The position numbers and the translations under genes were made by a program. Below, piece by piece: positions 1 to 13,323 of a stretch of 64,000 nucleotides of DNA. Numbering within the stretch: the first letter of the stretch is position 1; every line of letters begins with the position of its first letter. The DNA is taken from assembly GCA_036558225.1 (NCBI GenBank), contig DATBGA010000085.1, forward strand, positions 6,526 through 70,525, read 5' to 3'. Under the pieces are notes generated by a model. That model was not told the DNA's origin. It searched no databases and saw only the letters and a program-made list of their open reading frames with translations. This DNA is from Candidatus Methylomirabilota bacterium (GTDB taxonomy: Bacteria; Methylomirabilota; Methylomirabilia; Rokubacteriales; DASRDR01).

Positions 1-736
1 GATCGTCATCCCGCCCGGCCCGCGGCTGGGCGACGTGGTGGTCGTCGCCGAGCACCTCACGAAGGGCTACGGCGACCGCGTGCTGATCGACGACCTCTCC
101 CTCGCGATCCCGCGGGGGGCGATCGTGGGCGTCATCGGGCCCAACGGCGCCGGCAAGACGACCTTCGTCCGGATGATCGTGGGCCAGGAGAAGCCCGACC
201 GCGGCGCGATCCGGGTCGGCGAGACGGTCGTCCCCGCCTACGTGGACCAGAGTCGCGACGCGCTCGACGGCAAGAAGACCGTGTGGGAGGAGATCTCGGA
301 GGGGGCCGACATGCTGTCGCTGGGAAAGCGTCAGCTCAACTCCCGGAGCTACGTCGCCTCGTTCAACCTCAAGGGCGCGGATCAGCAGAAGCGCGTCGCC
401 GAGCTCTCGGGGGGCGAGCGGAACCGCGTCCACCTGGCGAAGCTCCTCAAGCGCGGCGGCAACCTCCTCCTGCTCGACGAGCCGACGAACGACCTCGACG
501 TCGACACCCTCCGCGCCCTCGAAGAGGCCCTGCTGACCTTTGCCGGGTGCGTCGTGGTGATCAGCCACGACCGCTGGTTCCTCGACCGAATCGCGACGCA
601 CATCATGGCGTTCGAGGACGAGGGCCGCGTGATCTGGTCCGAGGGAAGCTACGCCGACTACGAGGCGGACCGGAAGAAGCGCCTCGGGGCCGAGGCCGAG
701 CGGCCCCACCGCCTCCGCTACAAGCGGCTCAAGTAG
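1..736 (+). CDS. ettA: ABC-F family ATPase, EttA-like (3' portion; N-terminus lies upstream of the window)
   Basis: Frame is open from base 2. Second ABC cassette has Walker A GPNGAGKT, signature LSGGERNRV and Walker [13 protein letters not shown], followed by a basic C-terminal tail. TAG at 734-736. Confidence 0.85.
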
Positions 737-774: not shown

Positions 775-1227
775 CTACCCGGGGCTCGGCGGCTCCGCCA
801 GGATCCCCTGGATCACCGCCCGGAACTCGGCGATCGTGAACGGCTTCTCCAGGTAGCGGAGAGACGTCCCGTCCAGGAACCGGCGCGTCTCGGTGCTCAT
901 GATGTCCCCCGTGACGAACACCATGCGCCGGACGACCTCGGGGCACACGACCCGCAGCTCCTGGTAGAGGGCCGGGCCGTCCACGTCCGGCATCCGCACG
1001 TCGCTGACGATCAGCGCGTAGGCCCCACGGCGCACGAGCTCGAGCGCCTCGCGCCCGTCCATCGCCCGGTCGACCTCGTAGCCTTCCAGCGACAGGAACT
1101 CCGCCAGCAGCTCGCCCACGACCCGCTCGTCCTCGACGAGGAGGGCGCGCGTCTCGGGCCGACCGGCCGGCGGCGGGACCGGCTCGGGGACCGGGTCCAC
1201 CCGGGGGATTTCGACCGGCGCGCTCAC
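775..1227 (-). CDS. stand-alone CheY-like receiver protein (single-domain response regulator)
   Basis: Receiver signature (LLVEDE, phospho-acceptor context LIVSDVRMPDVDG, FVTG, EKPF) with no output domain. GTG start at 1227 overlaps the kinase stop in GTGA. The upstream part of the 296-aa track ORF is Arg/Pro-rich and overlaps the kinase out of frame. Confidence 0.8.
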   Translation of the reverse strand: MSAPVEIPRVDPVPEPVPPPAGRPETRALLVEDERVVGELLAEFLSLEGYEVDRAMDGREALELVRRGAYALIVSDVRMPDVDGPALYQELRVVCPEVVRRMVFVTGDIMSTETRRFLDGTSLRYLEKPFTIAEFRAVIQGILAEPPSPG

Positions 1228-3140
1228 GGCGCCTGGCTCCCGATCCGCCGCTCGCCGGAGGCCGGGTGGTCCGCCCGGGGGCCGGCGCGCGTCGGGAGCG
1301 CGATTGTGAACACGGTCCCCTGGCCCGGGGAGCTCCGGAACGTCACCGTGCCGCCATGGTCCTCGACGATCTTGTGCGCGATGGCCAGCCCGAGCCCCGT
1401 GCCCCCCACCTTGGTGGTGAAGAATGGGTTGAAGACGTCCGCCGTCTCCTCCGGCTTGATCCCGCTGCCGGTGTCCATCACCTCCAGCACGAGCCGGTCG
1501 CGGGACACGCCGCCGGGGCCCTCGGCATCCGGGGGCCAGCCCAGGCGCACGGTCAAGGTGCCGCCCTCGTCCTCCATGGCGTCGATGGCATTCGCGACGA
1601 GGTTGAGGAGGGCCTGGTAGAGGTGCTCGGCGTCTCCGGGGACGGGCGGCACCCCGGCCGGCCACTCGCGCCGCACGCGGATGCGACGGGCCTCGATCTG
1701 CGGCGCGTAGAGCTCGAGCGCCTGCTCGAGGAGCGGCGGGAGGTGCACGGGGGCGAGCTCGAGACGCGCGGGCCGGGCGAGCCGCAGAAGCCCGTCGACG
1801 ATCGCGTTGATCCGCTCGAGCTCGCGAGGGACCACGCTCTGGAACCGCTGGCGGAACCGCTCGTCGTCGAATCGCCGGGCGACGTGGCGGCTGAACGTCA
1901 TGATGGACGTCAGCGGGTTCTTGATCTCGTGCGCGAGGCCGGCCGCCAGCGTGCCCAGCGCCGCGAGACGGTCGGAGCGGCGGAGCTGCTCCTCCAGCTG
2001 GCGGACGGGCGTCAGGTCCCGGAGGACGGCCACCACTCCGAGGGCCTGCCCCTCCGCGCCGCGGAGGGGGGTCGTGGCCACCTCGACCGGCGCGGGCGGC
2101 CCGTCGCGCTGCGGCAGCGTGAGCACGGCCTGCGGCACCCCCACGCGGGTCCGGAGCGTCTCGAGTAGCAGGTCCCGGAACTCCGGGACGTGATGGAACG
2201 CCTCCGCGGCCGGCCGGCCCGTGAGCACGCTCGCCGCCCAGCCGGTGAGGGCCTCCGCGGCGGGGTTCACGGTGACCACGCGGCCGTCGAGGTCCAGCGT
2301 CACGAGCCCGTTCACGAAGGACCGGAGAATGTGATCGTTGTAGCTCTTCAGATCGGACAGCTCCGCGAAGCGCTGGTGCAGCGCCGCGTCGGCCACCTCG
2401 AGGTCCGTCCGCTGCTGGCGGAGCTGCGCCGCCATCTCGTTGAACGCGAGGGCGAGCCGGCCGAGCTCGTCGGAGCTGCCCGGGTGAATGCGCTGGTCCA
2501 GCTCCCCGCGCGCGATCGCGGCGACGCCGTCGGCGAGCTCGCGGACCGGCCGGGTGATCCGCCGGGCGACGACCGCTGTCGCCAGGCCGCCCAGCACGAG
2601 CGCGACCACGGCCAGCGCCGCCAGCTCGCGTCGGGTGCCGGCGATCTCCGCGTCCATGCGCCGCCGCGACAGCGCGATCCGCACGCTGCCCCAGCGGGTG
2701 CCGTCGACCAGGATCGGCACCGCGAAGTCGTAGAGCCGTTCCCCGTCCGACCCGGTCGTCTCCTGCAGCACGGGGGCGGCCGCGAGGGCCCGGAGGGACA
2801 CCGAATCCGACGGCGTGGAGCCGACCGCCCCGGGATCCCGGCTGTGCGCCACGACCTGGCCCAACCGGTCGAGGATCATCGCGTAGACCACGTCCGTCTC
2901 ATGGTCGAAGCGCACGACGTTCTGCTCGAGCGCCGTGAAGTTGTAGAGGAGGAGCGCGCCGGCCGACACGCCGGCCAGACCTTCCGCCAGAGCCGTCCCG
3001 CGGCGGTGGACCTCCTCGATGATGGTCGTCCGCTGCCGATGCTCCACGACGACCGCTACCGCGGCCATGAGGGCGGCGACGATCAGGATGGTCCCGATGA
3101 GGAGCTTGGTGCGAAGCGACACGAAGACGGGGCGAGTCAT
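1224..3140 (-). CDS. sensor histidine kinase (TM, ~150-aa periplasmic domain, TM, HAMP, PAS, HisKA, HATPase_c)
   Basis: Start is MTRPVFVSL (ATG at 3140). Two hydrophobic spans flank an extracytoplasmic segment. H-box LAHEIKNPLTSI, N-box NLVANAIDA, G-boxes DTGSGI and GGTGLGLAI. The first 325 aa of the 964-aa track ORF overlap the SBP gene and are rejected. Confidence 0.9.
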   Translation of the reverse strand: MTRPVFVSLRTKLLIGTILIVAALMAAVAVVVEHRQRTTIIEEVHRRGTALAEGLAGVSAGALLLYNFTALEQNVVRFDHETDVVYAMILDRLGQVVAHSRDPGAVGSTPSDSVSLRALAAAPVLQETTGSDGERLYDFAVPILVDGTRWGSVRIALSRRRMDAEIAGTRRELAALAVVALVLGGLATAVVARRITRPVRELADGVAAIARGELDQRIHPGSSDELGRLALAFNEMAAQLRQQRTDLEVADAALHQRFAELSDLKSYNDHILRSFVNGLVTLDLDGRVVTVNPAAEALTGWAASVLTGRPAAEAFHHVPEFRDLLLETLRTRVGVPQAVLTLPQRDGPPAPVEVATTPLRGAEGQALGVVAVLRDLTPVRQLEEQLRRSDRLAALGTLAAGLAHEIKNPLTSIMTFSRHVARRFDDERFRQRFQSVVPRELERINAIVDGLLRLARPARLELAPVHLPPLLEQALELYAPQIEARRIRVRREWPAGVPPVPGDAEHLYQALLNLVANAIDAMEDEGGTLTVRLGWPPDAEGPGGVSRDRLVLEVMDTGSGIKPEETADVFNPFFTTKVGGTGLGLAIAHKIVEDHGGTVTFRSSPGQGTVFTIALPTRAGPRADHPASGERRIGSQAP

Positions 3141-3151
3141 GCGACGTCCGC

Positions 3152-4789
3152 TCAGCGCGGTCGCTCGAGCCACACCTTGCGGAAGGGGATGTACGAGTCG
3201 CCGAGGCCGCTCACCTCGACTCCCTTGACGTACGGCTGGAAGAGGCGCTCGTACGTGTGGTGCCAGACGGGGATCACGGGGGCGTCCTCCAGCACCATCT
3301 CCTCCACCCGGCGGTAGACCTCGACCCGGCGCGCCATGTCCGGCTCGGCCCGCGCCCGCTCGAGCAGCGAGTCCACCGCCGGATTGGCGTAGCCCATGTA
3401 GTTCCACGGGCTCGCCGAGTAGAACAGCTTCGCGAGGAAGTTCTCGGGATCCGGCACGTCGGCGAACCAGGCCCGGAGAAAGACGGGGAGCTTCCGCTCG
3501 GCCATGGCCTTGGAGAAGCTCGGCCAGTCCGGATTGTACTGGAACTCCGCCGTGACCCCTACCGCCTCGAGATCCTTCCGGATCCGATCGTCCTCGCGAA
3601 GGATCTCCTCGGACCGGACGCTCGACCAGATCACGATGGGCGGCAGCCCGCGCCCGCCGGGATAGCCTGCCTGCGCCAGAAGCTCGCGCGCACGCGCGGG
3701 ATCGTAAGCGTAGCCCTTGAGCTTCGGGTTGTAGCCGAGCGTCCCGGGCGGGAGGATGCCCTTCGCGAAGGCGTAGCGGCCCAGCCAGATCTCCGAGACC
3801 ACCGCCTCTCGGTCGATGGCGTGGAGGAGCGCCTGGCGCACCCGCCGGTCGTCGAGCGGCTTCGTGCGCGTGCTGATCCCGTAGTGGCGAAGGCCGAAAA
3901 CCGGCCGGCGCACGTACTGGTAGGACTGCCCGGCGATGATCTGGCGGTAGTCCTTGGCGGGAATCGGGCTGTCCTCGAGCGCCCCCGCCTTGAACTCGGC
4001 GAAGACTCCGTCGGGGCCCTCCCCCGGAAAGATGCGATACACGAGCCGCGCGAGCTTCGGGGGCCCGTCGAAGTAGTCCGGGTTGGCGGCCAGCACGATC
4101 TCCTTCCCTCGGTCCCACCGCACGAAGCGGAAGGGACCCGTGCCGACGGGCTGGGCGCCGAACGCCTCCCCCTGCTCCTCCACCAGCTCGCGCGGCACGA
4201 TCTTGGCCTGGCCGACTGCCAGGATGGAGACGAAGGGCACTGGCGCCTCCGTCAGGGTGACGCGGACGGTGTAGCGGTCCACCACGGTGAGCCCCGAGAT
4301 GGCGCGGGCCCGACCCTCGCGAAACTCCTGCGCGCCTTGAATGCCCATGAAGTGATCGGCCCCTCCCGATCGGGTCCGCGGGTCCACGAGTCGGGTGAAG
4401 GAGTAGACGACGTCATCCGCCGTCACCTCCCGGCCGTGGTGGAACCTGACGCCCTTTCGGAGGGTGAAGGTCCAGGTGAGACCATCGCGCGAGGCGAGCC
4501 AGAACTGGGCGAGCGCTGGCGTGATGCTGAGGGTCTGGTCGAACTGGACGAGCCCGTCGAAGAGCTGCTGCATGACCGCGAGGCTGTAGATGTCGCGGAG
4601 CCGGGCCGGGTCGAGTGTCCCGGGGTCGTGGCCGATCGGGCGGCGATAGACTCCCCCCAGCTGGGCAGGCGAGCCCCCCTGGGCCCCGACCGAGGTCGAT
4701 CCGAGGCCCAGTGAGAGCCCAAGCGTGCCTAGGGCCAGCCAGCCGCCCCAGCGACGACGCGCGGAGCGTCCCGACGGGGCGGGACGCAT
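3152..4789 (-). CDS. family-5 extracellular solute-binding protein (peptide/nickel/opine type), orphan
   Basis: Signal peptide MRPAPSGRSARRRWGGWLALGTLGLSLGLG followed by a typical DppA/OppA/NikA-like SBP_bac_5 sequence. ATG at 4787-4789. No permease or ATPase genes are adjacent. Confidence 0.85.
   Translation of the reverse strand: MRPAPSGRSARRRWGGWLALGTLGLSLGLGSTSVGAQGGSPAQLGGVYRRPIGHDPGTLDPARLRDIYSLAVMQQLFDGLVQFDQTLSITPALAQFWLASRDGLTWTFTLRKGVRFHHGREVTADDVVYSFTRLVDPRTRSGGADHFMGIQGAQEFREGRARAISGLTVVDRYTVRVTLTEAPVPFVSILAVGQAKIVPRELVEEQGEAFGAQPVGTGPFRFVRWDRGKEIVLAANPDYFDGPPKLARLVYRIFPGEGPDGVFAEFKAGALEDSPIPAKDYRQIIAGQSYQYVRRPVFGLRHYGISTRTKPLDDRRVRQALLHAIDREAVVSEIWLGRYAFAKGILPPGTLGYNPKLKGYAYDPARARELLAQAGYPGGRGLPPIVIWSSVRSEEILREDDRIRKDLEAVGVTAEFQYNPDWPSFSKAMAERKLPVFLRAWFADVPDPENFLAKLFYSASPWNYMGYANPAVDSLLERARAEPDMARRVEVYRRVEEMVLEDAPVIPVWHHTYERLFQPYVKGVEVSGLGDSYIPFRKVWLERPR
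4766..4787 (-). promoter_or_regulatory. perfect 8-bp stem-loop that begins at the G of the SBP start codon
   Basis: mRNA sense is AU[GCGUCCCG]CCCCGU[CGGGACGC]. No Shine-Dalgarno in the 17 nt between the peptide-1 stop and this ATG. Confidence 0.3.
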
Positions 4790-4806
4790 CCAGGAGAGCG
4801 GGGCTG

Positions 4807-4953
4807 CTACCAGCCGCCGCCGCCGCCGCCGTCGCAGGCGTTGCCCACGGCCTGGAAGACCGGCATGTGGGTCTGCGTCCCCGACTCGATCACCGGGGCC
4901 ACAAGAAGAAAGGACACCACGATCACCAGCACGGTCCATACCTTCGTCATCAT
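4807..4953 (-). CDS. small secreted/membrane-anchored peptide P1 (48 aa), unknown family
   Basis: My own translation: MMTKVWTVLVIVVSFLLVAPVIESGTQTHMPVFQAVGNACDGGGGGGW. SD GGGAGG lies 2-5 nt upstream of ATGATG. Paralog of P2, with mostly synonymous differences in the shared 3' part. Below the size cut-off of the ORF track. Confidence 0.7.
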   Translation of the reverse strand: MMTKVWTVLVIVVSFLLVAPVIESGTQTHMPVFQAVGNACDGGGGGGW

Positions 4954-5026
4954 AGCCTCCCGGACGCCGGACGGCGCCCGACTGTGGGGGTTGGCTCGAT
5001 CGGAACCGTCGTGGTCGGAGAGGGTT

Positions 5027-5170
5027 CTACCAGCCGCCGCCGCCGCCGCCGTCGCAGGCGTTGCCGACCGCCTGGAAGACCGGCATGTGGGTCTTCGTCC
5101 CCGACTCGATCACCGGGGCCACCAGCAGGAAGGACGCGATGATCACAAGCATCGCCGTGAACCTGATCAT
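5027..5170 (-). CDS. small secreted/membrane-anchored peptide P2 (47 aa), paralog of P1
   Basis: C-terminal part of track ORF 5027..5404: MIRFTAMLVIIASFLLVAPVIESGTKTHMPVFQAVGNACDGGGGGGW. SD GGAGGAGG lies 8 nt upstream of the ATG at 5170. Sits downstream of a sigma-54 promoter match. Confidence 0.7.
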   Translation of the reverse strand: MIRFTAMLVIIASFLLVAPVIESGTKTHMPVFQAVGNACDGGGGGGW

Positions 5171-5187
5171 GGGCAGGCCTCCTCCAT

Positions 5188-5206
5188 GCGTCTCGTGGCG
5201 AGACGC
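5188..5206 (-). promoter_or_regulatory. stem-loop in the P2 5' leader, immediately 5' of the SD
   Basis: GCGTCTCG-CCA-CGAGACGC, a perfect 8-bp stem with a 3-nt loop. Confidence 0.3.
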
Positions 5207-5231
5207 GGTCTGTGGGTTCGGAGTGATGGAG

Positions 5232-5247
5232 AGCAAGGCCGGGGCCA
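5232..5247 (-). promoter_or_regulatory. sigma-54 (-24/-12) promoter for the peptide genes
   Basis: Minus strand reads TGGCCC-CGGCC-TTGCT against consensus TGGCAC-N5-TTGCW (10 of 11 specified positions, correct spacing). It lies about 60 nt upstream of the P2 ATG. Confidence 0.6.
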
Positions 5248-5348
5248 CCGCGGAATTCGATGGCCCCGCGAGGACGGAAGTATCCGCCAGGACGGGCGAA
5301 TCAGGTCTGCGCGTAGCCGGGGCTCGGCCGGTCGGACCAAAGACCGGA

Positions 5349-5368
5349 GTGCACTGTTTCCTGTGCAG
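5349..5368. promoter_or_regulatory. candidate enhancer (UAS) site A: GTGCAC-N8-GTGCAG
   Basis: Same architecture as sites B and C. Centre is about 110 bp upstream of the -24 element. Confidence 0.45.
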
Positions 5369-5432
5369 CCCCCCCGGCGATCGGGTGCGGATCTCCCCGA
5401 TCACGTCTGCAGAATCAGGGCCTTACGACGCG

Positions 5433-5473
5433 GTGCACACTAGACTGTGCACGGTGCACTGTCTACTGTGCAC
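5433..5473. promoter_or_regulatory. candidate enhancer sites B and C: two abutting GTGCAC-N8-GTGCAC units
   Basis: GTGCACactagactGTGCAC g GTGCACtgtctactGTGCAC. Centres are 21 bp apart, and the A-B centres are 84 bp apart (whole helical turns). The units overlap the stop codon of the enhancer-binding protein gene. TGCAC half-sites resemble NtrC-family sites. Confidence 0.5.
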
Positions 5474-6902
5474 CTCCCCCATCCGGTCGACCTCCGGCGG
5501 AGGCCAGGGCCACGGGGTCGATCCCCCAGGCCAGGAGCTTCGTCTTGAGCGAGTTCCGGTGGAGCCCGAGGAGCCGCGCCGCCTCCGACTGGTTCCACCG
5601 AACCCGCTCGAGGACGCGGAGGATGACCTGGCGGTCGAACCGCTCCCGGGCCTCGCGGAGCGGCAAGCTCGTGGGGTCGTCGACCAGGTGGCGCACGTCC
5701 GGGAGCATCAGGTCGAGCGGCACGTCCTTGACCTCGACGACGAGCCCGTCGGCCAGCGCGACGGCGCGCTCGATGACGTTCTGGAGCTCCCGCACGTTCC
5801 CCGGCCACCCGTACGCCATCAGGACGTCGAGCGCGGCCGGCGAGACCCCGGTGACGCGCTTGTGCAGGAGATGATTCGACCTCCGGATGAAGTGGTCGAC
5901 CAGGAGGGGGATGTCCTCGCGGCGGTCGCGGAGCGGCGGCACGGCGATCTGGACGACGTTCAGGCGGTAGTAGAGGTCCTCCCGCAGGCTCCCGCCCTGG
6001 ATGGCCTTGCGCAGGTCGGCGTTGGTGGCGGCGATCACCCGCACGTCGACCGGGATGCGCCGGGTCCCCCCGACGCGCTCGATCTCGCGCTCCTGGAGCA
6101 CGCGCAGGATCTTGGCCTGGAGGTCGACGCGCAGCGTGGCGATCTCGTCCAAGAACAGGGTGCCCCGGTGCGCCAGCTCGAACTTCCCGAGCTTCCGCGA
6201 GACGGCGCCGGTGAAGGAGCCTTTCTCGTGGCCGAAGAGCTCGGACTCGATGAGCGTCTCGGAGATCGCCGCCACGTTCACGGGCACGAACGGCTGGTCC
6301 CGCCGCGGCCCGTGCCGGTGGATCGCCCGCGCGACGAGCTCCTTCCCGGTTCCGCTCTCGCCCGCAATCAGCACGGTGAGCGGGTTCCGCGCCACGGCGC
6401 TGATCAGCTGGTAGAGCTGCTGCATCAGCGGATGCTGGCCGACGAGCTGGTCGAAGTCGCGCTCCCGCGCCAGCTCCGATCGGAGGTAGACGACCTCGCG
6501 GTCGAGCGCGCGGCGCTCGAGCGCACGGCGGATCAGGGGCAGGATCTCGTCCTCGTCGAACGGCTTGGTGACATAGTCGAGCGCGCCCAGCTTCATGGCC
6601 GCCACCGCGGCGGTCACGGTCTGGACCGCGGTCACCAGGACCACCTCAACGTGCTCGTCGATCGCCTTGATCCGCTCCAGGACCTCGATGCCGTCCATGC
6701 CGGGGAGCCGGAGGTCGAGCAGGACGAGGTCCACCGGTGCGCCCTGGACGCGCTCGAGGGCCTCAGGGCCGTCGCCCGCCTCCACGATCTGGTACTGTTC
6801 CTCCAGGACGAGCCGGAACGCCTCGCGGATGCCCGGGTCGTCGTCCACGACCAGGATGGTGGGGCGGGCGGCGCGGTCCGGCACGGACGGGAGCGGGGAC
6901 AT
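5463..6902 (-). CDS. sigma-54-dependent response regulator (NtrC family: REC + AAA+ + Fis-type HTH)
   Basis: Start is MSPLPSV (ATG at 6902). REC domain ILVVDDD and [16 protein letters not shown]+ Walker [24 protein letters not shown] (GAFTGA-type loop). C-terminal [19 protein letters not shown]. Confidence 0.9.
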
Positions 6903-6907
6903 TCCCC

Positions 6908-7588
6908 TCAGGAGGAGACCTCGACGGCGCGGGGATCCGGCTCGTAGAGCACGAACCGCATCGGCGTCGGGCGGTGGGCGTTGGTCGGGGTGATGTCCGA
7001 GGGGCAGGCCGAGTTGGCCGCCAGGACATCCATCTCCGCCAGGAGGTCGACGTAGTCGCCCGCCCGCGAGGGCGCCGCCATGGGCCGGACCGATCCGTCG
7101 GGCTGGACCGGCCACTGCATGAAGAAGTTGAAGGAGAAGGGCACGTCCTCGAGCTCGATGCCCCAGGGCGCGAGCGCCTCGGCGAGATTCGAGCGACAGC
7201 TCCGGTGTGGCCCGGTGTAATCCAGCCGGTTCCGGTAGTACTCCTCGCTGCAGGAGCCGCAGATGAGGTCGTGCACGCCCACCGTGTCGGCGATCAGGCG
7301 CATCATGGGCCGCCCGCGGTCGGACACGAGCGCCGCCCCCGTCCTCGGGTAGATCGTGCGGTTGAAGAGCACGGTGTTCTGCGGGGAGTACCGCTCGCCG
7401 AGGTCATCCCGGTTGAAGCAGACGAAGTCGCCGACCTGCTGCCCGTCGACGTCGATGACCCGCAGAACGAGCCCGCGAGCGACCTCGATCGCCGCGCCGT
7501 GACGCGCCGGGATCTCCACGATCCGGACCACGCGCCCCGGCACCGCCGCCCGACCGAGATGTGTCGCGCTCACTCGGGACCCCCGCAC
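6908..7588 (-). CDS. DUF1989 / urea-carboxylase-associated family protein
   Basis: The pattern (DVDGQQVGDFVCFNRDDLGERYSPQNT, HDLICGSC, CRSNLAEAL, FNFFM, AGDYVDLLAEMDVLAANSACPSD) matches my recollection of this family. The stop lies 5 nt before the regulator start. Start may be 7588 or 7573 (both GTG). Confidence 0.65.
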   Translation of the reverse strand: MRGSRVSATHLGRAAVPGRVVRIVEIPARHGAAIEVARGLVLRVIDVDGQQVGDFVCFNRDDLGERYSPQNTVLFNRTIYPRTGAALVSDRGRPMMRLIADTVGVHDLICGSCSEEYYRNRLDYTGPHRSCRSNLAEALAPWGIELEDVPFSFNFFMQWPVQPDGSVRPMAAPSRAGDYVDLLAEMDVLAANSACPSDITPTNAHRPTPMRFVLYEPDPRAVEVSS

Positions 7589-7697
7589 ACCCGTGCCCAG
7601 CCGGGCCGCCCGGCGTGCGGGGGGAGCGTATCACAGCTCGCGCACGCTATGATGGCCGCCGAAAAGTGCGCTCGTGATCGAGCGGGGAGGACGCGGA

Positions 7698-8540
7698 ATG
7701 GGGCGGCTCGAGGGCAAGGTGGCCATGGTGACCGGGAGCGGTGGCCAGCGCGGCTTCGGGCGGGCGATCGCGCGGCGGCTGGCGACCGAGGGGGCGGACC
7801 TGGTGCTCACGGATGTCGCGCCGGCTGGCATCCGCGTCGTGGCCCGGAAGCCTGCGACCGGCTGGGGCGGCCTCGAGACGGTCGCCGACGAGGTCCGGGA
7901 GGCCGGCCGCCGGGCCGTCACCGCCCTGGTCGACGTGCGCGCGGTCGAGCAGATCCAGCGCGCCGTCGACCTCGCGGACCGGACCTTCGGCCGGATCGAC
8001 ATCCTCGTCAACAACGCCGCCGCCCCGCCCGGCGCCGATCGCGTCCCGGTGGTCGAGCTCCCGGAGGAGGCGTGGCGCGAGGTCCTGGAGACCAACCTCA
8101 CCGGCACGTACCTCTGCAGCAGGGCCGTCGCCGGGCTCATGGTGGCGCGGGGCACGCCGGGCCGCATCATCAACATGTCCTCGAACTGCGGGAAGGCTGG
8201 CTACCCGCGCCTCGCCGCCTACTGCGCCTCCAAGTTTGGCGTGATCGGGTTCACCCAGGCGCTCGCCATGGAGCTCGCGCCGCACCGCATCACCGTGAAC
8301 GCGATCTGTCCCGGCTCGGCCGACACCGACCGGCTCGACTACCTCGGGCGGCGCCCCGACGGGAGCTACGACGAGACGCTCCGCGCGGAGGCCCTCGCCC
8401 AGCGCGCGGCCCAGATCCCGCTCAGGCGCGTCGCCGGCGCCGAGGACGTCGCGGAGCTGGCGGCCTTCCTCGGATCGGACGCCGCGGGCTACGTCACCGG
8501 GCAGGCCATCAACCTGGCCGGCGGCGCCGTCATGCACTGA
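7698..8540 (+). CDS. SDR family oxidoreductase (FabG-like)
   Basis: ATG preceded by GGGAGGA. Rossmann motif VTGSGGQRGFG, NNAA, catalytic Y-x3-K (YCASK). Confidence 0.85.
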   Translation: MGRLEGKVAMVTGSGGQRGFGRAIARRLATEGADLVLTDVAPAGIRVVARKPATGWGGLETVADEVREAGRRAVTALVDVRAVEQIQRAVDLADRTFGRIDILVNNAAAPPGADRVPVVELPEEAWREVLETNLTGTYLCSRAVAGLMVARGTPGRIINMSSNCGKAGYPRLAAYCASKFGVIGFTQALAMELAPHRITVNAICPGSADTDRLDYLGRRPDGSYDETLRAEALAQRAAQIPLRRVAGAEDVAELAAFLGSDAAGYVTGQAINLAGGAVMH

Positions 8541-8617: not shown

Positions 8618-9649
8618 ATGGAATCGGAACCGACCGTCCGGCGCGCGTGGCCCACCCGGGTCCGGGGACTCCGGGCGCTGGCCCCGGGTCTCTTGCTGGC
8701 CGGCTGTGGCCTGCTGGACTCGCCGGCGACGACGCTGACGCCGCGATCCGACTTCGGCTGGACGTCCCACCGGATCTTCCTCCAGATCCTGCGCTGGGAC
8801 ACGGCGATCTTTCTGGTGGTCCAGGCCCTGCTCCTCGTCGCGATCTTCCGGTTCCGGGAGCGCGAGCCGGGGCCGATCCCCCGGCAGGTGCGCGGCAGCG
8901 CGAAGCTCGAGCTCGCCTGGACGCTCATCCCGGCGGTCATCCTGACCTTCATCGCCTTCCCGACCGTGGGCGCGATCTTCCGGACGCAGGCTGCGCCTCC
9001 GAAGAACGCGCTCCGGGTGAAGGTCATCGGGCATCAGTGGTGGTGGGAGTTCCAGTATCCGGAGCTCGGGATCGTCACCGCCAGCGACCTCCACCTCCCG
9101 GCCGGGCGCCCGGTGAGCCTCGAGATCGCGAGCTCCGACGTCATCCACAGCTTCTGGGTGCCCCAGCTCGGCGGCAAGCGCGACGCGATCCCCGGCGACC
9201 TGACGCGCATCGTCCTCACTCCCGACGCGCCCGGGGAATACTACGGCCAGTGCGCCGAGTTCTGCGGCGCCTCGCACGCCAACATGCGCCACCTCGCCGT
9301 CGTCGAGCCGCCGGAGGCCTTCGACGCGTGGGCGGCGAGGCAGAAGGAGCCCGCGGCGGCCCCGCCCGACGGGTCCCCGGCGGCGGTGGGGCTCCAGACC
9401 TTCCGGACGGGCACGTGCGTCGGATGCCACACGGTGCGCGGGCTGTCGGCGGGCGGGATCGGGCCCGACCTCACCCACTTCGGCTCCCGCCGGACGATCG
9501 CCGGCGGCATCCTCCCGAACACGCCGGAGAACCTGGCGCGGTGGGTCCGGCACGCGCCGGCGCTGAAGCCCGGGTCGATCATGCCAGAGCAGCAGCTCTC
9601 CGACACGGAGGTCACGGCGCTGGTCGCGTACCTCCAGAGCCTCCGCTGA
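8618..9649 (+). CDS. ctaC: cytochrome c oxidase subunit II fused to a C-terminal cytochrome c domain (caa3-type)
   Basis: Lipobox LLAGC, two TM helices, CuA motif HSFWVP...CAEFCGASHANM, heme c motif CVGCH. Confidence 0.9.
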   Translation: MESEPTVRRAWPTRVRGLRALAPGLLLAGCGLLDSPATTLTPRSDFGWTSHRIFLQILRWDTAIFLVVQALLLVAIFRFREREPGPIPRQVRGSAKLELAWTLIPAVILTFIAFPTVGAIFRTQAAPPKNALRVKVIGHQWWWEFQYPELGIVTASDLHLPAGRPVSLEIASSDVIHSFWVPQLGGKRDAIPGDLTRIVLTPDAPGEYYGQCAEFCGASHANMRHLAVVEPPEAFDAWAARQKEPAAAPPDGSPAAVGLQTFRTGTCVGCHTVRGLSAGGIGPDLTHFGSRRTIAGGILPNTPENLARWVRHAPALKPGSIMPEQQLSDTEVTALVAYLQSLR

Positions 9650-9651
9650 GC

Positions 9652-12108
9652 ATGGCCGACGGCGCCCACGCCGCGTCCGTCGCCGTCGCGGCTACCGCTC
9701 CGCGGGCCGCCGAGGCCCGCGGCCTCGCGTCCTGGCTGACCACGGTCGACCACAAGCGGATCGGCCTCCTCTACGGTGGGACCGCCCTCGCGTTCTTCCT
9801 GCTCGCGGGGCTCGAGGCCCTCCTCATCCGGCTCCAGCTGGCCCGGCCCGAGGGTCAGCTCCTCGGCGCCCAGCGGTACAACGAGCTGTTCACGATGCAC
9901 GGCACCAGCATGGTGTTCCTGGCGCTGATGCCGCTGTCCGTCGCGTTCTTCAACTACCTCATCCCGCTGATGGTCGGCGCGCGCGACGTGGCCTTCCCCC
10001 GGCTGAACGCGCTCTCGTACTGGGTCTTCCTCCTCGGCGGGCTCTTCCTGAACGCGAGCTGGCTCGTCGGCACGCCCCCGGACGCCGGCTGGTTCGGCTA
10101 CGCGCCGCTCACGTCGAAGCCGTTCTCGATCGGGCCGCACTCCGACTTCTGGCTGCTCGCTCTGCTCTTCCTCGGGACGTCGAGCATCCTCGGGTCGCTG
10201 AACTTCCTGGTGACGATCCTCAACCTGCGGGCGCCCGGGATGACGTTCCTCCGGCTGCCCCTCTTCGTCTGGACGACCCTCGTCACCAACGTCCTCATCC
10301 TCCTCGCCTTCCCGCCGATCACGGTCGCGCTGATCTTCCTGATGTTCGACCGCTTCTTCGGGACCTCCTTCTACGTCCCCGCTGGCGGGGGCTCGCCGCT
10401 CCTATGGCAGCACCTGTTCTGGATCTTCGGCCACCCCGAGGTCTACATCCTGATCCTGCCCGCGATGGGGATCGTCTCCGAGGTGCTGCCGACCTTCGCG
10501 CGGAAGCCCCTGTTCGGCTACCCCTCGATGGTCTACGCGACCGCCCTCATCGGCTTCCTCGGCTTCGGCGTCTGGGCCCACCACATGTTCGCGGTCGGCA
10601 TGGGCCCGATCGCCGACTCGGCGTTCGGGCTGACGTCGATGCTCATCGCCATCCCGACCGGGATCAAGATCTTCAACTGGCTGTCGACCATGTGGGGCGG
10701 CGCGCTCCGCTTCCGGACCGCGCTCTGCTTCGCGGTGGCGTTCGTCGGGATGTTCACCATCGGCGGCCTGTCCGGCATCATGCACGCCTCCCCGCCGGTC
10801 GATCTCCAGCAGACCGACTCCTACTTCGTGGTGGCGCACTTCCACTACGTGCTCTTCGGCGGCACGGTCCTGGCGCTCTTCGCCGGCATCTACTACTGGT
10901 TCCCGAAGATGACGGGCCGCCTCCTCGACGAGCGGCTGGGGCAAGTCCACTTTTGGCTGATGCTGATCGGATTCAACCTGACCTTCTTCCCCATGCACTT
11001 CCTCGGGCTGATGGGCATGCCGCGGCGGATCTACACGTACGCGCCGGGGCTCGGGTGGGACTTCTGGAACCTGGTCTGCACCGTCGGCGCGGTCCTCCAG
11101 GGGGTCTCGCTCGTCGTGTTCGTCCTGAACGTGGCCCGGAGCCTGCGGTCGGGCGCCGTGGCCGGCCCGGACCCGTGGGACGGGCGGACGCTCGAGTGGG
11201 CGCTGCCGTCGCCGCCGCCCGAGTACAACTTCGCGGCGCTGCCCACGGTCCTCCGGCGCGACGCCCTCTGGCTCACCAAGTACCCCGACGCGCGCGGCCC
11301 TGGCCTCGCCGATGCGCGCGCGCTCGTCACGCCGGTCGGGCCGATTTACATGCCGGCACCGTCCCACTGGCCCCTCCTCACCGCCCTGGCGATGATCGTG
11401 CTGGTCGGGGGCGCCCTGCTCCACCTGGGCGTGGTGATCGCGGGGGGGCTCCTGACCCTGCTCGCCGTCCTGGCATTCGCGACCGAGCTCGTCCCGGCGC
11501 CCGCGGCCGACGGCATGCACACGGCCGGGCACCACGAGCACCCGCACATCGGGGCCACCGGCCTCGACCACCGGAAGCTGGGCATCTGGGTGTTCATCGG
11601 CTCCGAGTGCCTGTTCTTCGGAACGCTGATCTCGACCTACACGGTCTACCGGGGCCGGAGCCTCCAGGGACCGTATCCACACGAGATCCTGAACGTGCCG
11701 CTGATCACCGTGAGCACGTTCATCCTCCTGATGTCGAGCCTGACGATGGTCCTGGGGGTGGCGGCCATCCAGGCGCGGGACGTGCGCGCCGCCCGCCGCT
11801 GGCTCCTGGCGACCGCCGCCCTGGGATGCCTGTTCCTGGTCGGCCAGGTGTACGAGTTCAGCCACTTCGTCCACGAGGGGCTCGGGCTCACGACGAACCT
11901 GTTCGCCGCGACCTTCTACGTCATGGTCGGTTTCCACGGCACCCACGTGACGGTGGGCGTGCTCTGGCTCCTGGCTCTCTGGTATCTCCTGACGCGCGGC
12001 CGCCTCGGGGCCCGGGACGAGGCGCTGGTGGACATGGTCGGGCTGTACTGGCACTTCGTCGACGTCGTGTGGATCGCGATCTTCACCCTGGTCTATCTCA
12101 TCCAGTAG
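9652..12108 (+). CDS. ctaD: cytochrome c oxidase subunit I fused in frame to subunit III
   Basis: ATG at 9652, 2 nt after the ctaC stop. Subunit I signatures: WLTTVDHKRIG, WFFGHPEVYILILP-type segment, HHMF. Subunit III-like helices run from HHEHPHIGATGLDHRKLGIWVFIGSECLFF to ...WHFVDVVWI. The first ~335 codons of the 1153-aa track ORF are an out-of-frame overlap of ctaC and are rejected. Confidence 0.9.
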   Translation: MADGAHAASVAVAATAPRAAEARGLASWLTTVDHKRIGLLYGGTALAFFLLAGLEALLIRLQLARPEGQLLGAQRYNELFTMHGTSMVFLALMPLSVAFFNYLIPLMVGARDVAFPRLNALSYWVFLLGGLFLNASWLVGTPPDAGWFGYAPLTSKPFSIGPHSDFWLLALLFLGTSSILGSLNFLVTILNLRAPGMTFLRLPLFVWTTLVTNVLILLAFPPITVALIFLMFDRFFGTSFYVPAGGGSPLLWQHLFWIFGHPEVYILILPAMGIVSEVLPTFARKPLFGYPSMVYATALIGFLGFGVWAHHMFAVGMGPIADSAFGLTSMLIAIPTGIKIFNWLSTMWGGALRFRTALCFAVAFVGMFTIGGLSGIMHASPPVDLQQTDSYFVVAHFHYVLFGGTVLALFAGIYYWFPKMTGRLLDERLGQVHFWLMLIGFNLTFFPMHFLGLMGMPRRIYTYAPGLGWDFWNLVCTVGAVLQGVSLVVFVLNVARSLRSGAVAGPDPWDGRTLEWALPSPPPEYNFAALPTVLRRDALWLTKYPDARGPGLADARALVTPVGPIYMPAPSHWPLLTALAMIVLVGGALLHLGVVIAGGLLTLLAVLAFATELVPAPAADGMHTAGHHEHPHIGATGLDHRKLGIWVFIGSECLFFGTLISTYTVYRGRSLQGPYPHEILNVPLITVSTFILLMSSLTMVLGVAAIQARDVRAARRWLLATAALGCLFLVGQVYEFSHFVHEGLGLTTNLFAATFYVMVGFHGTHVTVGVLWLLALWYLLTRGRLGARDEALVDMVGLYWHFVDVVWIAIFTLVYLIQ

Positions 12109-12127
12109 GATCGAAGGGATCTCCAGG

Positions 12128-12499
12128 ATGGCGGACAGCGTGAGCGGAGAAGCCTCCAAGGCCCCGGACCCTCGCCGCGACGCGGGCGCGGCGCACGTGG
12201 GTGCGGGCCCGCGCACCTATCTCGTGGTCGCGGCGTTCCTGCTGGCGATCACCGTCATGGAGGTGTGGATCTTCTACGTCCCCGCGCTGGCGCGCGTCGT
12301 GGTCCCGATCCTGCTGATCCTCTCGACGCTGAAGTTCTCGCTGGTCGCCATGTTCTACATGCACCTCCGGTTCGACCACGCGTGGTTCTCCTACGTCTTC
12401 GTCGGGCCCATCCTCATCGCGATCGGCCTCGCCGTGGCGCTGCTCTGGCTGTTCGGCCACGTCGGCACCACCGGGATCCCTCCCGCCGGCGCCGGGTGA
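12128..12499 (+). CDS. prokaryotic cytochrome c oxidase subunit IV family protein
   Basis: Small 3-TM protein directly after the subunit I/III gene. TYLVVAAFLLAITVMEV resembles COX4_pro proteins. Confidence 0.7.
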   Translation: MADSVSGEASKAPDPRRDAGAAHVGAGPRTYLVVAAFLLAITVMEVWIFYVPALARVVVPILLILSTLKFSLVAMFYMHLRFDHAWFSYVFVGPILIAIGLAVALLWLFGHVGTTGIPPAGAG

Positions 12500-12504
12500 T
12501 CGAG

Positions 12505-13323
12505 ATGTCCGCGTTCCACTGGCATCCGGAGGTCGCGCTCGGCCTGGAGGCGCTCCTGGCCGGATACCTCCTGCTGACGGGCGTCCTCCGGCGCCGGCTC
12601 CGCTGGGGGCCGCCCCCCTCCCGCGGACGTGTCGCGGCGTTCGTGGGCGGCACCATCCTCCTGGCGGGCGCGGTGCTCGGGCCCCTCGCCGAGTGGGCCG
12701 AGCACGTGGCGCTCTCAGCGCACATGGCCCAGCACCTCGTGCTGATCCTGGTGGTGCCGCTGCTCTGGCTGCTCGGCCTTCCGCCCTGGCTCCTCGCGCC
12801 CGTCGCCCGCGCGCCCGTCGTCGGCCGGCTCGGCTGGCAGCTCACGCGTCCCCTGCCGGCGCTCGCGCTCGCCTCCGCGGTCCAGATCGCCTGGCACATC
12901 CCGGGGGCGTTCGACGCCGCCCTCCGCGTCGAGCGGCTCCACGCCCTCGAGCACGTCTCGTTCCTGGCCACCGGGCTCCTGCTCTGGTGGCCGGTCGCCG
13001 GACCCTCGCCCGAGTGGCCCCGGCCGACCCCGCCCGCCCAGCTCCTCTATCTCTTCCTCGCGACGATCCCGATGATGGCGATCGCCGCCCCGATCACGCT
13101 GGCCGACGACGTCCTCTACCCGTTCTACTCCGAGTCTGGCCGCGCCTGGCCGCTCGCGCCCCGCACGGACCAGGAGCTGGCGGGGATCCTCATGTGGGTG
13201 GGTGGGATGTTCGGGTACCTGATCGCGGGCACCGTGGTGTTCTTCCGGTGGGCGGGCCCCGAGGTCCTGGCGGACGGCGAGGTGCCCCTCGAAGGGGCGG
13301 AGGCGACGGCGCATGGCGGGTGA
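12505..13323 (+). CDS. ctaG: cytochrome c oxidase assembly factor CtaG (Caa3_CtaG family membrane protein)
   Basis: Start is MSAFHWHPEV. Polytopic membrane protein with the HMAQHLVLILVVPLL motif typical of Bacillus-type CtaG. Lies in the oxidase operon. Confidence 0.75.
   Translation: MSAFHWHPEVALGLEALLAGYLLLTGVLRRRLRWGPPPSRGRVAAFVGGTILLAGAVLGPLAEWAEHVALSAHMAQHLVLILVVPLLWLLGLPPWLLAPVARAPVVGRLGWQLTRPLPALALASAVQIAWHIPGAFDAALRVERLHALEHVSFLATGLLLWWPVAGPSPEWPRPTPPAQLLYLFLATIPMMAIAAPITLADDVLYPFYSESGRAWPLAPRTDQELAGILMWVGGMFGYLIAGTVVFFRWAGPEVLADGEVPLEGAEATAHGG

Follow-up and report, generated by a model that had tools for sequence, protein, structure and literature searches.

The window (the whole 64-kb stretch of DNA that was analysed) has two tandem genes, P2 and P1, which, as their conservation across related genomes shows, are real coding genes of an undescribed peptide family. 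The two are the first genes of a predicted sigma-54-dependent operon, with co-transcription expected to run on into the genes for a binding protein, a kinase and a receiver. Overall, the family seems to belong to a new form of binding-protein-dependent two-component signalling. The peptides most likely feed back on their own signalling circuit rather than bind metal, because their genes sit between the sigma-54 activator gene and the binding-protein/kinase pair. The genes and the repeats within them are as follows.

5463-6902, minus strand: activator, an NtrC/AtoC/ZraR-type response regulator (REC, sigma-54 AAA+, HTH_8) of 479 aa
5027-5170, minus strand: P2, 47-aa peptide gene MIRFTAMLVIIASFLLVAPVIESGTKTHMPVFQAVGNACDGGGGGGW (database gene call P0014)
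4807-4953, minus strand: P1, 48-aa peptide gene MMTKVWTVLVIVVSFLLVAPVIESGTQTHMPVFQAVGNACDGGGGGGW, 47 aa if the start is at 4950 (database gene call P0001)
4813-4835, minus strand: (GGC)~7 microsatellite encoding the Gly run of P1, with a P2 twin at 5033-5055
3152-4789, minus strand: periplasmic solute-binding protein of 545 aa, SBP_bac_5 (2.6e-86), DppA/OppA/HbpA clade
1224-3140, minus strand: sensor histidine kinase of 638 aa with TM, periplasmic sCache_3_2 (residues about 35-170), TM, HAMP, PAS, HisKA and HATPase (Pfam)
775-1227, minus strand: stand-alone receiver of about 150 aa, Response_reg (1.3e-19)

P2 and P1 are separated by 73 nt, and the P2 ORF is enclosed by the 3’ end of a mechanical 125-aa GTG ORF (5027-5404), as described in an earlier note made from the sequence alone. 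The Shine-Dalgarno sequences are GGAGGAGG (5178-5185) for P2 and GGGAGG (4956-4961) for P1. The first ATG of P1 is 2 nt from GGGAGG and the second (4950) is 5 nt from it. Since the second ATG is better spaced and the database gene call is also 47 aa, the true length of P1 is probably 47 aa. The last 108 nt of the two genes differ at six sites; five are synonymous (Phe, Leu, Leu, Ala and Val) and one results in Q/K, exactly the count given earlier. There are 14 differences in the first 36 nt, and the two genes share no similarity in their untranslated flanks.

The search for homologues found 265 proteins of 44-48 aa, nearly all from Rokubacteria/Methylomirabilota MAGs. A profile search of 1.84 billion representatives resolved the family into 61 clusters at 50% identity and found no relatives beyond the same narrow family. 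The weak outliers of that search look spurious, such as P0170, a protein of VAPLVESGLHCG repeats. The family is almost confined to uncultured soil and groundwater Rokubacteria, with MAGs obtained from Microflora Danica, Angelo Reserve and NC groundwater sites. Across 57 gene copies, the invariant Ala, Pro, Ser, Gly and Ala columns each use 3-4 different codons and therefore point to selection at the protein level. The median pairwise dN/dS is 0.34, and both results bear out the earlier claim that the ORFs are coding and under purifying selection. Neither peptide has a Pfam or NCBIfam match, and there is no Rfam match in 4600-5600. A full-text search by the conserved core motifs found no literature on the family, which the earlier note also did not recognise. 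The corresponding search for a Rokubacteria kinase and peptide returned nothing relevant.

The conserved core of the family is LLVAPVIESGT-x4-xFQAxGxA-(C)-[DE]-Gly-rich. The most invariant part is the C-terminal half of the hydrophobic segment together with APVIESGT (L15, A18, P19, E22, S23, G24). The 4-residue x4 stretch and the start of the hydrophobic region are variable, and the C-terminal part of the peptide is nearly invariant. The earlier note described the N-terminal part as diverged. This holds for the first 36 nt, but the N-terminal part is not simply diverged, since it includes the most invariant residues of the family. Its other statement, that conservation is the reverse of a RiPP leader and core, is upheld by the nearly invariant C-terminal part. 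Paralogous peptides from the same locus differ in the x4 stretch, which may be a linker and not a specificity determinant. The length of the Gly run ranges from 2 to 6 across the family, sometimes broken by A, D or S, and the terminal residue may be W, D, F, E or G. By inspection, the N-terminus consists of M(M)TK and about 17 hydrophobic residues, followed by P-V-I-E-S|G (Ile at -3, Ser at -1). In the AlphaFold2 model, residues 2-22 form a helix (pLDDT >90), 23-30 a coil and 31-39 a short helix, and the Gly tail is disordered. This agrees with the earlier description of the N-terminus as resembling a signal peptide or membrane anchor, and the hydrophobic segment could equally be either.

The control region (5171-5480) lies upstream of P2 and includes the following elements, listed with the hairpin of P1.

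5455-5472: enhancer palindrome 1, TGCAC-N8-GTGCA, overlapping the activator stop codon, about -225 from the promoter
5434-5451: enhancer palindrome 2, 21 nt (two helical turns) from palindrome 1, -204 from the promoter
5350-5367: enhancer palindrome 3, about -118 from the promoter
5232-5247, minus strand: sigma-54 -24/-12 promoter element, TGGCCCCGGCCTTGCT, GG-N10-GC
5188-5206, minus strand: 5’-UTR hairpin of P2, GCGTCTCG-CCA-CGAGACGC, just 5’ of the Shine-Dalgarno sequence
4962-4979, minus strand: hairpin of P1, GGGCGCC-GTCC-GGCGTCC, 5’ of the P1 Shine-Dalgarno sequence

The promoter element is the single match to TGGC-N7-TTGCT in the 64-kb window. In about 40 of 42 loci the element recurs with fixed spacing, 128-148 nt 5’ of the APVIESG codons, while the 7 spacer bases vary. 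TGCAC-N8-GTGCA has three matches in 64 kb against 0.01 expected, and all are upstream of the first peptide gene. Tandem Repeats Finder calls palindromes 1 and 2 as a 21-nt repeat. The palindromes of related loci are at -225, -204 and -118 and are absent elsewhere in those loci; palindrome 1 is near -225 in at least 13 loci, with no other site in those 8-16 kb. A promoter scan found no sigma-70 promoter in 3000-5600. The terminator scan of the same region gave one terminator-like match, which is inside P1 and does not represent an above-chance signal. The element, the sites and the adjacent activator gene are those of a sigma-54-dependent promoter with upstream activator sites, at which the activator would bind.

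A GC-rich hairpin of 7-10 bp is found at the same place before nearly every peptide gene, with stems of different sequence. The thermodynamic z-scores of the UTR hairpins range from -1.2 (the P2 5’-UTR hairpin) to 0.05 and are not significant alone in 70% GC DNA; therefore, the case for these hairpins comes from the comparative pattern.

The gene order is shared by nearly every complete locus among the 42: an NtrC-type sigma-54 activator, one to five peptide genes, SBP_bac_5, an sCache histidine kinase and often a receiver. The exception is locus L007. The order is kept while the flanking genes change and protein identity drops to 53-65%, and independent gene calls with precomputed Pfam matches give the same order. 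Some MAGs have two modules each. The earlier note had missed this sigma-54 operon context (activator, SBP_bac_5, sCache kinase and receiver). The DUF1989 and short-chain dehydrogenase genes were considered as module parts and rejected, as they accompany the module in close relatives only. In distant loci the flanks instead encode an unannotated secreted protein, an SLT transglycosylase and a FecR-like protein. Genes for a RiPP-type modifying enzyme, a protease or an exporter are absent within ±8 kb in the window and the loci examined, which is consistent with the earlier view that this is not a classical RiPP cluster.

The activator has Pfam matches to Response_reg (3.6e-31), Sigma54_activat (9.6e-71) and HTH_8 (1.9e-11). 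Its top NCBIfam scores are to AtoC, NtrC and ZraR, all under the equivalog cut-offs. In about 38 of the 42 loci the gene immediately precedes the peptide genes, and its product is presumed to activate the peptide operon. The kinase has its highest NCBIfam scores with AtoS and ZraS, both partners of sigma-54 activators, and it is syntenic in every locus that extends far enough. The GTG start of the receiver overlaps the stop codon of the kinase (GTGA). The receiver is also found in close relatives; called independently, it is a Response_reg protein of 159 aa.

The solute-binding protein has its own signal peptide (…RRRWGGWLALGTLGLSLGLGSTSVGA/QG) and starts 17 nt past the P1 stop. Most loci have a gap of 13-27 nt between the last peptide stop and the binding-protein start. 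Among solved structures, the nearest are peptide binders (DppA, OppA, MppA, HbpA/AibA and the pheromone binder PrgZ), with NikA as a weaker match. D444 of the window protein aligns with DppA D408, and the Asp is kept in 31 of 32 orthologues. We take DppA D408, like OppA D419, to be the Asp that anchors the alpha-amino group of the ligand. The Arg specific for dipeptides (DppA R355) falls in an alignment gap in the window protein. No transporter-type ABC ATPase is encoded within ±8 kb of the loci in close relatives, where the sole nearby ABC protein, with two ABC_tran domains and ABC_tran_Xtn, is an ABC-F encoded convergently. A binding-protein gene beside a kinase gene, with no ABC permease or ATPase genes, fits a binding-protein-dependent kinase module in which the two proteins would make contact. 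Signalling from family-5 binding proteins to receptors has precedents (CBP to ChiS, AibA to TlpB and DppA to Tap), and kinase-stimulating binding proteins are typically encoded beside signalling genes, according to a review on binding-protein signalling (PMC8050422).

Three roles had been suggested for the peptides: an exported signal, a metal-binding peptide and a bacteriocin-like product. The gene context best fits the first. The peptides may be a self-made periplasmic ligand or modulator of the sensor of their own operon, forming an autoregulatory loop of either sign. We hold this reading tentatively, as a plausible one. The phosphorylated NtrC-type regulator would bind the three TGCAC-N8-GTGCA sites and turn on the sigma-54 promoter at 5232-5247. 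A single transcript would then carry P2, P1, the binding protein, the kinase and the receiver. Peptide output would be high relative to the receptor genes, because each peptide gene has a strong Shine-Dalgarno sequence and a hairpin and the genes come in one to five tandem copies.

The peptides would be Sec substrates, given the N-terminal Lys/Arg, the hydrophobic helix (about 17 residues) and, after it, the invariant A-P-V-I-E-S/G-T. Cleavage by signal peptidase I would probably follow VIES, with Ser at -1, Ile at -3 and Pro at -5, and yield a periplasmic product 20-24 aa long, GT-x4-xFQAxGxA(C)[DE]-Gly(n)-[W/D/F]. The candidate ligand for the mature binding protein is GTQTHMPVFQAVGNACDGGGGGGW. 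A released peptide of 24 residues would be roughly 2 kDa, as estimated from the residue number, and would need an exporter to get out of the periplasm. The DppA/OppA-type binding protein may capture this peptide and dock on the periplasmic sCache domain of the kinase. Docking would alter the kinase output to the activator and close the loop. The feedback may act positively, as autoinduction, or negatively, like that of MgrB, CpxP and ZraP.

Two features of the peptide seem to count against its being a ligand. The hydrophobic segment and APVIESGT are conserved far beyond the needs of a generic Sec signal, and this conservation fits a functional transmembrane helix at least as well. The x4 stretch differs between paralogues of the same locus, yet it would be nearest to the proposed binding anchor. 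In addition, sCache_3-type domains can bind small ligands directly, so the kinase may sense something else.

The module resembles other binding-protein-dependent sensors, namely LuxP-LuxQ, TorT-TorS, CBP-ChiS (Vibrio), AibA-TlpB (H. pylori) and DppA-Tap (E. coli), in that the binding-protein gene is by a sensor gene and not a transporter. The kinase has a periplasmic Cache-type domain, as is found in the sensor kinases of this kind, and the binding protein belongs to SBP_bac_5, like CBP, AibA and DppA. The module differs from them in that the presumed ligand is co-encoded in the operon by one to five small genes, which the sigma-54 activator apparently drives. This self-ligand arrangement is absent from the excerpts of the review on binding-protein signalling (PMC8050422).

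The module also shares a short, ribosomal, exported and unmodified-looking peptide with the PrgZ/cCF10, RRNPP and AIP/ComC systems. The binder is homologous to PrgZ and OppA. The peptide genes are likewise linked to kinase and regulator genes, with apparent autoregulation. Unlike Gram-positive peptide signalling, the module has neither AgrB-type nor C39-ABC-type processing and export, nor an Opp permease and cytoplasmic RRNPP receptor, within it or beside it. The proposed sensing is also extracytoplasmic, by way of the binding protein and kinase, in a host with a predicted outer membrane. In an autoinducer reading, the module would be a self-contained circuit of an outer-membrane bacterium that runs from a Sec-exported unmodified peptide through an OppA-like binder, an sCache kinase and a sigma-54 activator back to the peptide genes, and MAGs with two modules may run two separate channels. 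Such a circuit is conceivable, but we consider it unlikely. Rokubacteria are predicted to have two membranes (PMC5712423). Because of the predicted outer membrane and because no exporter is encoded, a loop confined to the periplasm that reports peptide stability, leakage or proteolysis is more likely than a diffusible quorum signal.

As the main alternative, the peptide could be an uncleaved small membrane protein (N-in, C-out) whose transmembrane helix and short periplasmic tail bind the kinase or tether the binding protein and exert feedback in the manner of MgrB on PhoQ. The binding protein would then sense an external peptide or other ligand independently. MgrB is a 47-aa membrane peptide acting on PhoQ, ZraP is a sigma-54-dependent periplasmic repressor of ZraSR, and CpxP on CpxA is also a small feedback modulator. 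The likeness to all three is that of a small envelope product at a sensor locus, with its gene apparently under the cognate regulator. The likeness to ZraPSR extends to the sigma-54 activator and the ZraS/AtoS-like kinase, and that to MgrB includes the size and the one confident helix (2-22) of the 47-aa peptide. The invariance of the C-terminal half of this helix and of ESGT is unusual in a cleavable signal peptide, and the variable x4 resembles a linker joining two conserved modules. On the other hand, the hydrophobic stretch is short, at about 17 residues, and includes a Pro, and the small residues after it form a pattern that signal peptidase I could accept. In Pfam and NCBIfam the peptide is unrelated in sequence to MgrB and to all other known small regulators; the LTXXQ motif and the MgrB-type Cys pair are lacking, and at most one Cys is present, in one clade. 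The module further differs from the MgrB, CpxP and ZraP systems in its tandem peptide genes and in the binding protein that is always interposed. An uncleaved peptide leaves unexplained the constant co-encoding of a peptide-type binding protein with an intact anchor Asp. A functional analogy to MgrB is possible, but this alternative as a whole seems somewhat unlikely.

It is less probable that the peptides are the output of the system, either a secreted antimicrobial, surface-active or matrix effector or a RiPP precursor whose modifying enzymes are encoded elsewhere. Environmental peptides sensed by the binding-protein/kinase pair would trigger their production. Amplification to 2-5 tandem copies, the features that suggest high expression, the predicted dependence on a two-component system and a Gly-rich tail like that of some microcins are consistent with this. 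However, none of the 42 loci has immunity, export or modification genes, and the flanks vary. The mature part of the peptide is almost invariant between species whose neighbouring proteins are only 55-65% identical, and competitive toxins usually diversify. The reversal of leader and core conservation also does not fit a RiPP, and the signal is of Sec type and not a double-glycine leader. The bacteriocin-like role suggested earlier thus has no support, given the absence of immunity and export genes and the near invariance of the mature part.

A periplasmic soft-metal (Cu/Ni) peptide, analogous to ZraP of ZraPSR and binding through His, Met and Cys, is very improbable. The idea came from the window copies, which have all three residues; the adjacent kinase and regulator score against ZraS and ZraR, and family-5 binding proteins include NikA. 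The invariant His/Met/Cys core claimed in the earlier note is limited to the comparison of the two window copies. In the family as a whole, His and Met fall within the hypervariable x4 stretch, and Cys occurs in 22 of 57 copies, all of a single clade, with D, S, E or A otherwise. The more distant half of the family (…ESGTSGSTQxFQAIGTADGG…) has no His, Met or Cys and keeps the whole module. There is also no Pfam match to ZraP, CpxP or Spy. A disulfide partner was considered and rejected, since the mature binding protein of the Cys-bearing clade is Cys-free and the Cys columns of the kinase are cytoplasmic; no Cys in the binding protein or in the kinase periplasmic domain co-varies with that of the peptide. 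The pattern of family conservation already largely refutes the metal-ligand role.

A cis-acting leader of the SecM/MifM/VemP type, in which export-sensitive arrest would open a downstream hairpin and control translation of the binding protein, would be consistent with the N-terminal export signal, the conserved C-terminal motif near the stop codon and a hairpin in the window (GCGUCCCG…CGGGACGC) that reaches the last base of the binding-protein AUG, but is scarcely credible, as the approximately 26 residues from the hydrophobic segment to the stop are too few to clear the ribosome tunnel, the terminal residues vary, the hairpin is not conserved across loci and every tandem copy is preceded by a Shine-Dalgarno sequence of its own.

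Rokubacteria have large genomes and are abundant in soil and groundwater; to our knowledge, none of their signalling systems is known from experiment. The module is among their most conserved lineage-specific cassettes. Products of 45-48 aa are too short for many ORF length cut-offs, and one of the two was missed in this way here. The family, which lacks a model and a name, is ready for direct addition to databases. The module is compact, with five genes and a 300-bp control region, and can be tested in a heterologous host with no need to culture Rokubacteria. If the peptide is the ligand of its own sensor, small-peptide feedback would be combined in one operon with sigma-54 activators and binding-protein-dependent kinases. 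It would also be one of the rare examples of signalling by a ribosomal peptide in an outer-membrane bacterium. We know of no such architecture described for peptide-based cell-cell or envelope-state signalling. If the autoinducer reading is true, the circuit would be a defining trait of the uncultured Rokubacteria.

The two tandem minus-strand genes P2 and P1 encode small peptides that probably serve as a self-encoded ligand or modulator of their own sensor. The pair lies in the following setting.

35-736, plus strand: C-terminal half of an ABC-F (EttA-like) gene, convergent to the others; full-length counterparts have ABC_tran, ABC_tran_Xtn and ABC_tran domains
775-1227, minus strand: receiver-only protein, its GTG start overlapping the kinase stop codon
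1224-3140, minus strand: histidine kinase (TM, sCache_3_2, TM, HAMP, PAS, HisKA, HATPase), 11 nt after the binding-protein gene
3152-4789, minus strand: SBP_bac_5 binding protein with its own signal peptide, 17 nt after P1
4807-4953, minus strand: P1, 48 aa, GGGAGG Shine-Dalgarno before the start; (GGC)~7 microsatellite at the 3' end (4813-4835)
4962-4979: hairpin before P1
5027-5170, minus strand: P2, 47 aa, GGAGGAGG before the start; (GGC)~7 microsatellite at the 3' end (5033-5055)
5188-5206: hairpin before P2
5232-5247: sigma-54 -24/-12 element TGGCCCCGGCCTTGCT
5350-5367, 5434-5451 and 5455-5472: palindromes TGCAC-N8-GTGCA, upstream of the promoter
5463-6902, minus strand: NtrC/AtoC/ZraR-type response regulator (REC, sigma-54 AAA+, HTH_8), separated from P2 by a 292-nt control region
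6908-7588, minus strand: DUF1989 protein, upstream of the activator gene
7674-8540, plus strand: short-chain dehydrogenase, divergent, flanking the module

The minus strand of 4600-5400 carries both ORFs as the earlier note described them. P1 is an entry of the mechanical ORF list and P2 forms the 3' end of a 125-aa GTG ORF, with a gap of 73 nt between the two genes. The second ATG of P1 (4950) is better spaced to the GGGAGG than the first, and the database gene call for P1 (P0001) has 47 aa. A codon-by-codon comparison reproduced exactly the six substitutions counted earlier, here over the last 108 nt, of which five are silent (Phe, Leu, Leu, Ala, Val) and one gives Q/K. Over the first 36 nt there are 14 differences. 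Since both the 5' and the 3' flanks of the two genes are unrelated to each other, the pair is not a recent DNA duplication passively carried along.

The peptide family is without a model, a name or a literature. Among 5.8 billion proteins searched, 265 are homologues (44-48 aa); each is either unnamed or called "hypothetical", and no Pfam domain is assigned to any of them. P1 and P2 have zero matches in Pfam and NCBIfam, and the motif strings occur in zero papers in a full-text literature search. A profile search of 1.84 billion representatives gave 61 clusters, all recognisably the same peptide except for a few spurious matches. One weak match, P0170 (165 aa), consists of six repeats of VAPLVESGLHCG and resembles a translated DNA repeat array, not a family relative. 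The family consensus is M-x-K-(hydrophobic x10)-SFLLVAPVIESGT-x4-(P/Q)-[VIF]-FQA-[VI]-G-[NT]-A-(C)-[DE]-Gly(2-6)-[W/D/F/E/G]. Codons were compared over 57 gene copies, taken from the window and 40 loci. Each invariant column (Ala, Pro, Ser, Gly and Ala) uses 3-4 different codons and the median pairwise dN/dS is 0.34, so selection acts on the amino-acid sequence, as in a real, translated family. The Gly run is encoded almost exclusively by GGC throughout the family, which makes it a microsatellite prone to slippage. It has 2 to 6 Gly, and the last residue alternates between W, F, D, E and G; therefore, the length and end of the tail are weakly constrained.

Back-translated motif scans, with one genome per species, yielded 42 loci, nearly all from Candidatus Rokubacteria, Rokuibacteriota or Methylomirabilota MAGs of soils and groundwater. 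Four sit in bins labelled Nitrospira(ceae), Verrucomicrobiia or Actinomycetota but have Rokubacteria-like neighbour genes. The window has a GC content of 70% and the same neighbour genes as the Rokubacteria-type loci, which places it in this lineage.

Synteny was surveyed at all 42 loci using tblastn with the module proteins and a regular expression for the peptide. The order of activator, 1-5 peptide genes, binding protein, kinase and usually receiver is kept wherever the contig is long enough, except at one locus (L007), and it persists even where identity to the window proteins falls to 59% for the binding protein, 53% for the kinase and 60% for the activator. Independent metagenome gene calls with precomputed Pfam matches give the same picture, including a case of five tandem 46-aa genes. 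The DUF1989 and short-chain dehydrogenase genes border the module in all close relatives, as in the window, but not at distant loci, and could be either cargo specific to the lineage or a target of the system. The distant loci instead have an unannotated secreted protein, an SLT transglycosylase, a FecR-like protein and an extra HATPase protein. Since the flanking genes change between clades, the conserved unit is the four- to five-gene module. The earlier note was correct that maturation and export genes are not adjacent, but it overlooked this module around the peptides.

Two observations concern the flanks. The secreted protein of the distant loci (~265 aa, no Pfam match; L032:5450-6253, also L022:5387-6262 and L038:5255-6235) is encoded directly upstream of the activator gene, near the SLT transglycosylase and FecR-like genes, and is missing from the window clade; inspection by eye shows an H-x4-D…H-x-H pattern (…DHHNAVDV…GAHIHIG…), which recalls LAS-type zinc peptidases. 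In the window, ORF translations of 8618-13323 (plus strand) resemble by eye a cytochrome c oxidase-like cluster, with a subunit II bearing a c-type haem motif, a subunit I/III-like fusion and a CtaG-like membrane protein.

The -24/-12 element is the single TGGC-N7-TTGCT in the window. It lies 128-148 nt ahead of the APVIESG codons in about 40 of the 42 loci, and its seven internal bases vary freely. The palindrome has three matches in 64 kb, all in this region, where shuffles expect 0.01. It recurs at -225, -204 and -118 from the promoter in at least 13 close loci and several distant ones, and nowhere else within those 8-16 kb loci. Beside a sigma-54 activator gene, the palindromes show the arrangement classical for a sigma-54 enhancer. 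A GC-rich hairpin of 7-10 bp just 5' of the Shine-Dalgarno, 20-50 nt upstream of the start codon, precedes nearly every peptide gene at all loci. The stems vary between loci and tandem copies (GCGTCCCG/CGGGACGC, GGCGCC/GGCGCC, GGAATCCTC/GAGGATTCC, GGGTGCTC/GAGCACCC); the position is kept, as is a loop, CUCAUGGGGAG, in distant loci. The folding energies alone are not significant in such GC-rich DNA, so the support is the comparative pattern. The hairpins have no Rfam match; mRNA stabilisation and a processing site are two possible roles. In most loci the last peptide stop is 13-27 nt from the binding-protein start with no conserved terminator between them; therefore, peptides, binding protein, kinase and receiver are read as one operon.

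The nearest solved relatives of the binding protein are peptide binders (8upi at 1e-77, DppA, HbpA, the AI-2-binding AibA, MppA and OppA). The pheromone binder PrgZ is more distant, and scores for NikA and opine binders are much lower. When aligned to a DppA structure by HMMER, D444 of the window protein matches DppA D408, the Asp anchoring the alpha-amino group of the ligand, and 31 of 32 orthologues keep this Asp. The dipeptide-specific Arg position falls in a gap, which would be compatible with a longer ligand. A second SBP_bac_5 homologue, elsewhere in the window (38605-39573, minus strand), is distant, with 29% identity to the binding protein of the module. No ABC permease or transporter ATPase was found near the module in the window or related loci. 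The sole nearby ABC protein of close relatives is the convergent ABC-F, with two ABC_tran domains and ABC_tran_Xtn; since ABC-F is not a transporter, no ABC transporter partner for the binding protein lies nearby. The kinase has its best NCBIfam scores to AtoS and ZraS, which partner with sigma-54 activators. Family-5 binding proteins are known to act on receptors (CBP on ChiS, AibA on TlpB, DppA on Tap), and genes of kinase-stimulating binding proteins adjoin signalling genes, according to a review of signalling by solute-binding proteins (PMC8050422).

By inspection, the peptide N-terminus appears to have the three-part form of a Sec signal, with Lys/Arg at position 3-4, about 17 hydrophobic residues, a Pro and then V-I-E-S|G, a putative cleavage site that would place Ile at -3 and Ser at -1. 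In an AlphaFold2 model built on the family alignment, residues 2-22 form a confident helix (pLDDT above 90), followed by coil over SGT and x4 (the variable four-residue stretch), a short helix of lower confidence over VFQAVGNAC and a Gly tail that is disordered. The peptides are probably cleaved after VIES. The favoured but tentative version is a cleaved ligand acting through the binding protein; an uncleaved, MgrB-like modulator is less likely. The main argument for a functional transmembrane segment is that the extreme conservation of LLVAPVIESGT goes beyond the needs of signal peptidase. The ~23-24 residues up to the site are a typical Gram-negative signal peptide length and short for a stable membrane anchor.

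Among the roles offered in the earlier note, an exported signal fits the gene context best, and this context supports a possible signalling function. The earlier note's invariant His/Met/Cys core of soft-metal ligands, the basis for a metal-binding peptide, is contradicted by the family, and that role is rejected. The His and Met of "THMP" lie in the sole hypervariable stretch (alternatives include TSVP, SRLP, TSMP and GSTQ); the Cys occurs in 22 of 57 copies, all from the clade nearest the window, and is elsewhere D, S, E, A or absent; and the distant half of the family (…ESGTSGSTQxFQAIGTADGG…) lacks all three. The core is therefore a local feature and not a conserved function, and neither the binding protein nor the periplasmic domain of the kinase has a partner Cys. 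A RiPP or bacteriocin finds no support, since no locus has enzyme, immunity or export genes, the mature part is near-invariant and the conservation pattern is opposite to leader and core. A SecM/MifM-like arrest peptide is dismissed because the hydrophobic segment is too near the stop codon, the terminal residue varies and the window's downstream hairpin is not kept in other loci.

In loci with two copies, the upstream gene is of the MTKLTAIL… type (like P2) and the downstream gene of the MMTKVWTVL… type (like P1). These form two orthologous series across species, so the duplication is old and both copies were retained. Copy number reaches five (L003, L044, L045, L007). Three MAGs have two modules each, complete or partial and differing in their peptides (L010/L013, L015/L041, L018/L027); one genome may run two separate signalling channels, or the bin may mix two strains. 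L007 has five near-identical 216-bp tandem units (7050-8400), three frameshifted by 1-nt indels, with merely the first codons of the activator gene (MSPLP) upstream; tblastn found no kinase gene after its binding protein. It may be a decaying module or a misassembly (a long-read artefact in the repeat).

For the self-encoded ligand, the activator would bind the three palindromes and fire the sigma-54 promoter, and the operon would yield plentiful peptide and less receptor, as Shine-Dalgarno strength, hairpins and gene copy number suggest. The peptides would be exported, and the binding protein, with no transporter genes nearby, would capture the new N-terminus and modulate the sCache kinase, which by family pairing would set the phosphorylation state of the activator. 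Either a positive or a negative loop is compatible with the sequence. Since Rokubacteria have outer-membrane and LPS genes (PMC5712423) and the module has no exporter, a periplasm-confined loop is favoured over a freely diffusible quorum signal; it would act as a readout of peptide stability, of proteolysis or of leakage through the envelope. The surrounding parts belong to ordinary families, and the novelty is in the peptide family and the wiring, a new form of two-component signalling that depends on a binding protein and includes small-protein feedback; here ligand-like peptide genes open a sigma-54 operon whose later genes encode a transporter-less peptide-binding protein and its kinase.
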